DNA of 64,000 nt. Origin: Escherichia phage N2. Shown one piece after another: positions 3,560 through 4,153 of this stretch. The stretch is from sequence record ON645936.1; one strand, 5' to 3'. Each line of letters begins with the position of its first letter. Position 1 is the first letter of the stretch. Made by a program: the position numbers and the translations under genes. A model generated the notes under the pieces. It was not told where the DNA came from. It saw only the letters and a program-made list of their open reading frames with translations, and did no database searches.

Positions 3560-4153
3560 TTATTTCAGAGAATTAATATATTCCTGAATATCGGCAGAGG
3601 TGGTTTCAACCCCAGAAATATTACCGTTAAAGGTTTCAACTCGAGCAAGAGTATCTTCAATATCAACCTTAGTTAGCGCTGCGATTTCAACTACATCATC
3701 AGCAGTACTAATTCCAAGGGCATTTGCCGCACGAGTTTCACGGATATATTCCAATTTAACTGCAAGTTCTTGGCGAGCATCATCTAACTCAACTACTTTC
3801 TTGGCGATTTCAATTCGCATTTCAGCATAACCATCAGCTTTAGTAGTCAACTGCTCAGCTGTTCGACGATATAGCAAACCGAGTTTAGCGTGCATTGTTA
3901 CATCTTGACCTTCGGAAAGAAGTTTACGAATTTCACGCTCTTTTGATTCAGCCTGTCTATTCTTTTCGACAATAAGTTCACGAATACGTTTTTCTTCATT
4001 AATAGATTTAACAGAAGCAGTTTTTAAGTCTTTAATTTTATCAAGTAGTTTTGCTGCTGCAGCAGTATACTGTTCTTCAACAGATAGATTTTTAGCCATA
4101 GCAGAACCAAGTTTAGTGCGAATAAACTCAACAATTTTCTTCAGTGTGTTCAT
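3560..4153 (-). CDS. Coiled-coil protein with PspA/IM30-like character (e.7-like)
   Basis: 197 aa; long heptad-like charged helices ([43 protein letters not shown]); PspA resemblance judged by eye only. Confidence 0.5.

Follow-up and report, generated by a model that had tools for sequence, protein, structure and literature searches.

Background

In PspA (PF04012; PDB 4whe, 7abk) and cyanobacterial Vipp1/IM30 (Synechocystis sll0617; PDB 7o3w, 6zvr, 8qbr), the N-terminal helix α0 is the membrane-binding helix and is followed by a hairpin formed by α1 and α2+3, and the elements α4/α5 lock the polymers of PspA, Vipp1 and ESCRT-III together. We have compared these proteins with the product of gene e.6, which lies on the minus strand at positions 3,560 to 4,153 of a 64,000-nucleotide stretch of Escherichia phage N2 DNA (sequence record ON645936.1; the whole stretch is called the window below). 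Vipp1 was the best match of e.6 by every method used, and e.6 very probably belongs to the PspA/IM30(Vipp1) branch of the ESCRT-III superfamily, as a phage-specific member that has diverged strongly. At stressed membranes, PspA and Vipp1 attach to the cytoplasmic face by means of α0 and the hairpin, form polymers and limit the leakage of protons (PMC7619361, PMC12795941), and repair by PspA of the proton leakage of damaged membranes is attributed to Kobayashi et al. 2007 as cited in PMC12795941.

ESCRT-III proper (archaeal CdvB2, eukaryotic CHMP1B/Snf7) may share with e.6 the superfamily fold of a helical hairpin followed by shorter helices, but it shows no sequence-level signal to e.6 and is related to it only through PspA/Vipp1. 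Neither a Vps4-type ATPase nor a MIM motif was identified. Phage-encoded PspA-family proteins exist, as the Acinetobacter phage vB_AbaM_ME3 protein named PspA/IM30 (UniProt A0A172Q0S7) illustrates; its structure matches the e.6 model weakly (E 0.08, TM-score 0.48), and it represents a different, more canonical lineage. BLAST searches of 50,697 phage records with E. coli PspA gave two matches, both in metagenomic contigs, and the e.6 family is found in more than 1,000 of these records.

Results

Gene e.6 and its distribution among phages

The window is a segment of a T4-like (Tequatrovirus) genome, and its listing of open reading frames (ORFs) contains the gene as follows.

3560..4153, minus strand: coding sequence of gene e.6, ATG to TAA with the stop included; 197 amino acids, 22.1 kDa, isoelectric point about 6.1

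This ORF is a real gene, e.6 of a Tequatrovirus. It was detected by tblastn in 1,099 of the 50,697 phage records, at identities from 99% down to about 30% and with coverage of at least 80% in 1,091 of them, and is present in one copy per genome. The matching records call it e.6 or hypothetical protein. An end-to-end match to PHROG 1203 (E 2e-87) carries the label 'unknown function', and Escherichia phage N2 has the identical protein under the name 'hypothetical protein'. Relatives elsewhere in the databases are named 'hypothetical', 'phage protein', 'host specificity protein' or 'tail completion protein'. The last two names are unsupported, as no tail or receptor-binding domain was found in e.6, and none of the names reflects a link to PspA. 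No function was given in the annotations or literature searched, nor did that literature contain a paper connecting e.6 to PspA, Vipp1 or ESCRT-III.

The family extends over Straboviridae (T4-like, RB43-like and Aeromonas phages) and, through Kuttervirus FEC14, Ackermannviridae. Gene e.6 is a conserved T4 gene, listed in databases without a function, that occurs in more than 1,000 genomes, and the large virulent phages that carry it belong to two families or more. No cellular relative was found when 185,579 bacterial and archaeal genomes were scanned by motif, and a word-indexed protein search returned close relatives only. An exhaustive search of 1.84 billion cluster representatives with a hidden Markov model (HMM) of close relatives matched 45, nearly all of about 200 amino acids or fragments, with no canonical PspA among them.

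The RB43 reference record has e.6 only as a 97-amino-acid ORF (4154-4447), and tblastn aligns e.6 residues 52-197 from 4001 on; the match is nearly full length in another RB43 record, HE858210.2. A frameshift in the reference, or a start called wrongly there, may be the reason.

Similarity of the e.6 family to PspA and Vipp1

Profile comparisons were made with hhalign between an alignment of 45 diverse full-length e.6-family members (A3) and a second alignment (A4) of 21 sequences, drawn from enterobacterial PspA and cyanobacterial Vipp1. The two profiles aligned Met1 to Met1 over 195 collinear columns, with a Prob of 94.9%, a P of 4.3e-8 and a score of 57.9. Reversing either profile lowered the score to about 21. 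Shuffling in blocks of 1, 7, 14 and 28 columns gave mean scores of 12.7, 16.8, 18.4 and 28.6, the highest single score being 41.3, and cyclic rotation of the profiles led back to the native register every time. With the five most PspA-like bridging members removed, the Prob was still 90.8% (P 1.2e-6).

Searches in sequence databases gave the same result. Of 177,635 PDB sequences searched with A3 using hmmsearch, ranks 1-7 were all Vipp1 or PspA (E 1.1e-4 to 2.6e-3), with e.6 residues 1-146 aligned to residues 1-147 of Vipp1/PspA. The reverse search, in which a PspA/Vipp1 HMM was run against the e.6 family and 76 ORFs of the window, matched e.6-family proteins only (best E 1.1e-3). Two members of the family, P0065 and P0066, exceeded the gathering cut-off of PF04012 (PspA_IM30), which is 33.9 bits: P0065 scored 35.1 bits (E 1.4e-8) and P0066 39.0 bits (E 8.9e-10), both over model positions 2-143, and the next-best Pfam family for either had an E of at least 0.03. 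Two others, P0067 and P0068, matched PF04012 at E 1e-4, under the cut-off. P0065 and P0066 also matched a profile built from T4-like e.6 sequences only, over their full length (E 1.5e-21 and 5.3e-20, respectively). P0065 shares 25% identity with the window e.6 over residues 1-196 (BLASTP, E 6e-17) and retrieves T4 e.6 as a tblastn query (5e-8). Judged by these scores, P0065 and P0066 are unambiguous e.6 relatives. The close relatives of P0066 come from phages of about 158-163 kb, such as FEC14.

Two AlphaFold2 models of e.6, generated from two alignments (predicted local distance difference test, pLDDT, 74 and 80), were searched against the PDB using Foldseek. Vipp1 filled the top 8 places with one model and the top 13 with the other (best E 8.8e-5), and archaeal CdvB2 and unrelated hairpins ranked below. 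Filaments of CdvB2 and CHMP1B matched the models with E values of 0.05-0.5 and TM-scores of 0.2-0.45, mixed with unrelated hairpins, and a giant-virus Snf7 protein was among the matches in a viral structure library.

Several results weigh against the assignment. Neither the window e.6 nor any of its 31 close relatives matched PF04012 at E <= 10, the close T4-like set alone reached only P 2e-3 against PspA/Vipp1 in hhalign, and the PspA/Vipp1 HMM scored the window e.6 at only 5.8 bits. Coiled-coil proteins are prone to spurious profile matches, and the PDB search with A3 carried a HMMER bias of 16-18 bits, as is usual for coiled coils. For the bridging protein P0067, another coiled-coil family scored slightly above PspA. 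TM-scores of the e.6 models to Vipp1 chains were only 0.41-0.56. Since the window protein and its close relatives give no significant signal of their own, the assignment rests on distant members and on profiles; the link between P0066 and Vipp1 likewise exists at the profile level only, because their pairwise BLAST comparison was non-significant.

One alternative is that there is no homology at all, and that e.6 is a generic charged coiled-coil hairpin whose PspA matches are convergent or compositional artefacts. Searches of Pfam, NCBIfam and the PDB (phmmer) with the window e.6 alone returned nothing beyond scattered coiled-coil families, and the single sequence and its close relatives matched only an assortment of such families at E 0.005-0.05, so single-sequence searches are uninformative and e.6 has stayed unannotated. 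Pairwise identity to PspA/Vipp1 is 13-18%, and many hairpins outside the PspA family (PI3K iSH2, SMC arms, IpaB) appear lower in the Foldseek lists. This explanation is nevertheless improbable, and the least probable of the three alternatives considered here. The reversed and shuffled profiles score far under the real pair; the matches begin at residue 1 of both proteins with every method; two members pass a curated Pfam cut-off with the next family at E 0.03 or worse; and in each of the two independent fold searches the leading places all go to Vipp1. A reading of the window made earlier from its letters alone (the sequence-only reading) had proposed the PspA/IM30 resemblance and had named a lack of profile similarity to PspA-family proteins, with only a generic coiled coil, as the outcome that would speak against it. 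With control averages of 12-29 against 57.9, that outcome was not what we found.

Predicted architecture of e.6

The sequence-only reading had described the 197-residue protein as almost entirely charged amphipathic helix, and the models agree. With 33 K+R and 34 D+E in 197 residues, e.6 is 34% charged; it is predicted to be about 84% helical, with no transmembrane segment. Both AlphaFold2 models contain helices at residues 2/3-22, 25-80 and 86-145, followed by three short ones, and the regions of the protein correspond to the following segments of the gene.

4088..4150, minus strand: residues 2-22, amphipathic N-terminal helix corresponding to PspA/Vipp1 α0; a helix in both AlphaFold2 models, with a low pLDDT of 46-57
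3914..4081, minus strand: residues 25-80, first hairpin arm corresponding to PspA α1; AlphaFold2 helix with a pLDDT of 74-98, aligned by hhalign and HMMER
3719..3898, minus strand: residues 86-145, second hairpin arm corresponding to PspA α2+α3; AlphaFold2 helix with a pLDDT of 81-94, supported by the alignments
3563..3718, minus strand: residues 146-197, C-terminal region specific to the e.6 family; three short predicted helices

The α0 and α1/α2+3 hairpin layout of the PspA/IM30 family is thus present in the predicted models, with α0 at low pLDDT. Vipp1 and e.6 are in register from residue 1, and their α0, α1 and α2+3 are of very similar length. With PspA, e.6 shares the architecture over PspA residues 1-144, the α0 moment and the hairpin-tip motif. 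The hydrophobic moment of α0 is 0.45 in e.6, 0.42 in E. coli PspA and 0.57 in Vipp1, compared with 0.25 ± 0.12 for shuffled sequences, and α0 of e.6 taken alone aligns in register with PspA α0 (22 columns, P 3e-4, hhalign). The N-terminus of the family has the motif M-x-x-L-K-K-I-x-x-F, and at the α0/α1 junction S-x-E-(D/E), in several members S-P-E-D, is aligned to E-D-P-E-K of PspA. At the start of the second arm, T-H-A-K-L-(G/A)-L-L-Y-R-R aligns with the PspA hairpin tip L-A-R-E-A-L-x-R-K-K (AKLALLYRR versus LAREALxRKK). In these alignments, e.6 residues 1-146 match PspA α0, α1 and α2+3 helix for helix.

The C-terminal region and possible interference with the host Psp system

The resemblance to PspA/IM30 held for residues 1-146 in hhalign, the PDB hmmsearch, Pfam (through P0065 and P0066) and Foldseek, and did not extend to residues 146-197. 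Residues 1-146 account for 54.1 of the hhalign score of 57.9, and the PF04012 matches of e.6-family members end at model positions 143-158 of 220. Residues 146-197 alone showed no similarity to α4/α5 of PspA/Vipp1 (hhalign, P 0.15), which counts further against a PspA-like protein, as self-assembly is then not implied by the e.6 sequence. Vipp1 has 267 amino acids against 197 for e.6, in which neither α4/α5 nor the C-terminal α6 extension of Vipp1 is recognisable. Within the family the C-terminal region has conserved positions (G147, T174-F175, Y192 and L196); its pLDDT is 48-56 over residues 151-180 and 77-87 in the last helix. By alignment, the last ~50 residues of e.6 are a family-specific replacement of α4/α5. 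We regard e.6, on sequence grounds, as a new, divergent and virus-specific member of the PspA/Vipp1 family with an altered C-terminus, a link absent from the literature searched. If it does belong there, it would be a minimal PspA variant of 197 residues with a new C-terminal module, useful for structural work.

The part of PspA that corresponds to α0-α3 (E. coli PspA 1-144) binds and inhibits the activator PspF. A PspA homologue reduced to this part could act on the host Psp system instead of on the membrane, either silencing psp induction or co-assembling with host PspA and poisoning it, which would ease the breach of the membrane at lysis or injection. The restriction of the similarity to residues 1-146, with the polymer-forming α4/α5 replaced, fits such a role, as does the stability of E. 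coli PspA 1-144 as a hairpin fragment, whose crystal structure (4whe) is among the PDB/Foldseek matches. The weak induction of host psp during T4 infection (PMC12795941) is also in line with it. A mimic of host PspA would not be expected to lie nearer to cyanobacterial Vipp1 (hhalign P 1.6e-7) than to enterobacterial PspA (P 1.4e-4), as the e.6 family does. A dedicated PspF inhibitor would moreover seem redundant, because T4 shuts off host transcription anyway. We consider interference with host Psp unlikely, and place it first among the three alternatives, ahead of a re-purposed scaffold (discussed below) and of no homology.

Transcription signals and expression of e.6

Three elements flank the gene.

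4196..4224, minus strand: sigma-70-type promoter, aGTTTACA - 17 nt - TG-a-TATAAT, directly upstream of e.6 and overlapping the 3' end of e.7
4160..4164, minus strand: Shine-Dalgarno sequence AAGGA, 6 nt ahead of the ATG, read from the sequence
3537..3557, minus strand: GC-rich hairpin GGGGC-UUCG-GCCCC, 5 nt past the e.6 stop, between e.6 and e.5

The promoter match is the top sigma-70-type match in the first 7.6 kb of the window (11/12, with an extended -10) and has the shape of a T4 early promoter; it is probably the functional promoter of e.6. PspA is instead expressed from a sigma-54 stress promoter. The downstream hairpin, found in a scan for terminator-like structures, has a predicted RNA folding energy of -15.1 kcal/mol (z -2.1) and a weak T-tract, and the record of Yersinia phage fPS-90 has a terminator annotated at its e.6 gene. 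The hairpin could be a terminator or an RNA-stabilising element. Because an early-type promoter, an AAGGA and a downstream hairpin flank the gene, e.6 has the appearance of an early unit that is complete in itself. The T4 e.6 transcript belongs to the early class, and proteomics has detected its product in the 'middle' protein class (PMC9697503 supplement).

Genomic neighbourhood and a possible scaffold role

Among the genes between e.6 and the start of the window are the following.

263-679, minus strand: denV
739-1233, minus strand: lysozyme gene e, 2.3 kb from e.6
1270-1725, minus strand: nudE
2193-2567, minus strand: e.3, with predicted transmembrane segments
2549-2962, minus strand: e.4, with predicted transmembrane segments
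2910-3518, minus strand: e.5, between e.4 and e.6

Beyond nudE, the window continues with the e.2 to e.8 array, a tRNA cluster and a segB-like gene. Pfam gave no assignment for the neighbours e.3, e.4, e.5 and e.7. The sequence-only reading had e.6 following two small membrane proteins. The predicted transmembrane segments of e.3 and e.4 bear out their description, but e.5 intervenes, and in the order of transcription e.6 comes first, upstream of e.5, e.4 and e.3. Its further suggestion of a membrane module near the lysozyme gene does not hold, and its speculation that such a module could modulate lysis timing or resist membrane-targeting abortive-infection systems is unsupported. In RB43 the e.6 homologue lies between nrdD and nrdG, in Aeromonas phage 65 near gene 31 and cd, and in FEC14 near ligase and primase genes, and tblastn found no homologues of e.2-e.5, e.7 or e.8 at the RB43 and phage 65 loci. 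A module of e.6 with e.3, e.4, e.5, e.7 and the lysozyme gene was accordingly rejected. As the neighbours vary among e.6 homologues, the grouping of e.6, membrane proteins and lysozyme is a local coincidence of the T4 map. The classical Psp operon (PspF-PspABC) has partners, whereas no pspBC- or pspF-type genes were found near e.6 in the window, RB43, phage 65 or FEC14.

The variable neighbourhood is compatible with a protein of PspA-like ancestry that now does an unrelated job, its hairpin serving as an oligomerisation or adaptor scaffold, for example at a membrane-associated assembly or replication site, or binding phage or host proteins through its C-terminus. The conservation of the C-terminal 50 residues within the family, unrelated to PspA, would suit a scaffold of this kind. 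Yet the amphipathic α0 and the hairpin-tip motif are kept across both Straboviridae and Ackermannviridae, so the ancestral membrane-facing elements appear to be still under selection, and Pfam and PHROG searches found no alternative partner or domain. There is only a small chance, in our view, that e.6 has been re-purposed in this way.

Proposed function of e.6

Our preferred reading, which we hold with moderate confidence, is that e.6 is an early, free-standing, phage-encoded protein of the PspA type that binds the inner membrane. As the gene is a self-contained early transcription unit, its protein would be made soon after infection. With α0 and the hairpin it would attach to the inner membrane on its cytoplasmic side and self-assemble in the manner of PspA and Vipp1. 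By limiting proton leakage, it would keep the membrane energised during envelope puncture, loading and final lysis, including after tail puncture, upon superinfection and through lysis inhibition, and it could counter defence systems of the depolarisation type and prevent premature firing of the holin. We put the chance that e.6 has a membrane-stabilising function at close to even.

Host transcription is shut off by T4, and during T4 infection psp of the host is induced only weakly (PMC12795941). The host would then be unable to mount its sigma-54-dependent Psp response, for which the phage would provide a replacement. A broader and more doubtful extension is that T-even phages and Ackermannviridae carry their own early membrane-maintenance protein of the ESCRT-III superfamily in place of the host Psp response. 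Such a protein might hold the proton-motive force, with the result that holins are not triggered prematurely, lysis inhibition is sustained and depolarising defences are blunted, and its family-specific C-terminus might make assembly or regulation unlike that of PspA/Vipp1.

Two further results do not favour a membrane-protecting role. No partner gene of e.6 is conserved across its contexts in RB43, phage 65 and FEC14. Knock-down of T4 e.6 by CRISPRi-ART under laboratory conditions had no fitness effect (score 0.30, 'Not Fit'; PMC11879866 supplement), and that study lists the function of e.6 as unknown (PMC11879866). The proposed benefit would be conditional on superinfection, lysis inhibition, membrane-depolarising defence systems or stressed hosts, which fits the dispensability of e.6 in standard culture.

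If the preferred reading is true, a lytic phage provides an inner-membrane stress protein itself once induction of such a protein by the host has ceased to be possible; unlike Vipp1, this protein is encoded by a virulent phage. The PspA/Vipp1/ESCRT-III superfamily, which attracts wide interest at present, would then be linked to the way in which phages control membrane energisation, in lysis timing, lysis inhibition, superinfection and resistance to depolarising defences. With e.6 placed beside PspA, a role in protecting the membrane can be tested in T4, the phage that has been studied best. Should the homology alone hold and the function differ, the result is still a useful annotation correction.

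Other observations on neighbouring genes

Directly after the e.6/PspA-like gene of FEC14, the locus 4647-5225 encodes a 192-amino-acid 'membrane protein' with an N-terminal transmembrane segment. It is an unrelated protein with a single transmembrane segment and could be a membrane partner.

In the window, e.2 appears as two overlapping minus-strand ORFs, 1855-2196 (113 amino acids) and 1707-1898 (63 amino acids, one transmembrane segment). The split is caused by one extra T near 1917 (T7 versus T6) relative to Shigella phage vB_SsoM_113, in which e.2 is a single gene of 489 nt; the annotated e.2 of T4 is short as well (309 nt). A natural frameshift variant, a slippery run or a sequencing error could account for it. 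The e.4 ORF as listed has a TTG start at 2962 and a 53-nt overlap with e.5. Its real start is probably the ATG at 2941 (130 amino acids, as in T4), because the PHROG alignment starts at residue 8 (MSKPS...).

The gene at the e.7 position (4197-4727, minus strand) encodes 176 amino acids, compared with 111 (336 nt) in T4 and vB_SsoM_113. Its protein matches PHROG 6869 in full, PHROG 18312 with its N-terminal half and PHROG 8232 with its C-terminal half, which points to a gene fusion or replacement at a variable position.

At 5331-5424 on the minus strand, ARAGORN predicts an unusually long 'tRNA-Lys (ttt)' of 94 nt, beside a strong terminator-like hairpin at 5281-5258. In T4 this place is taken by the small stable RNAs C and D, and the 94-nt prediction may be a tRNA-like RNA and not a working tRNA-Lys. 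The tRNA cluster at 5597-6952 comprises Arg, Met/Ile-CAU, Thr, Ser, Pro, Gly, Leu and Gln, and contains a segB-like ORF (5677-6342, minus strand, 221 amino acids), as is the case for segB of T4. The segB-like gene of vB_SsoM_113 is annotated as truncated, and the tRNA set of that phage differs, with Tyr, Asn and Met there. At the other end of the region, denV directly adjoins lysozyme gene e (263-1233), as it also does in vB_SsoM_113; in T4, the internal-protein genes ipII and ipIII are situated between the two.

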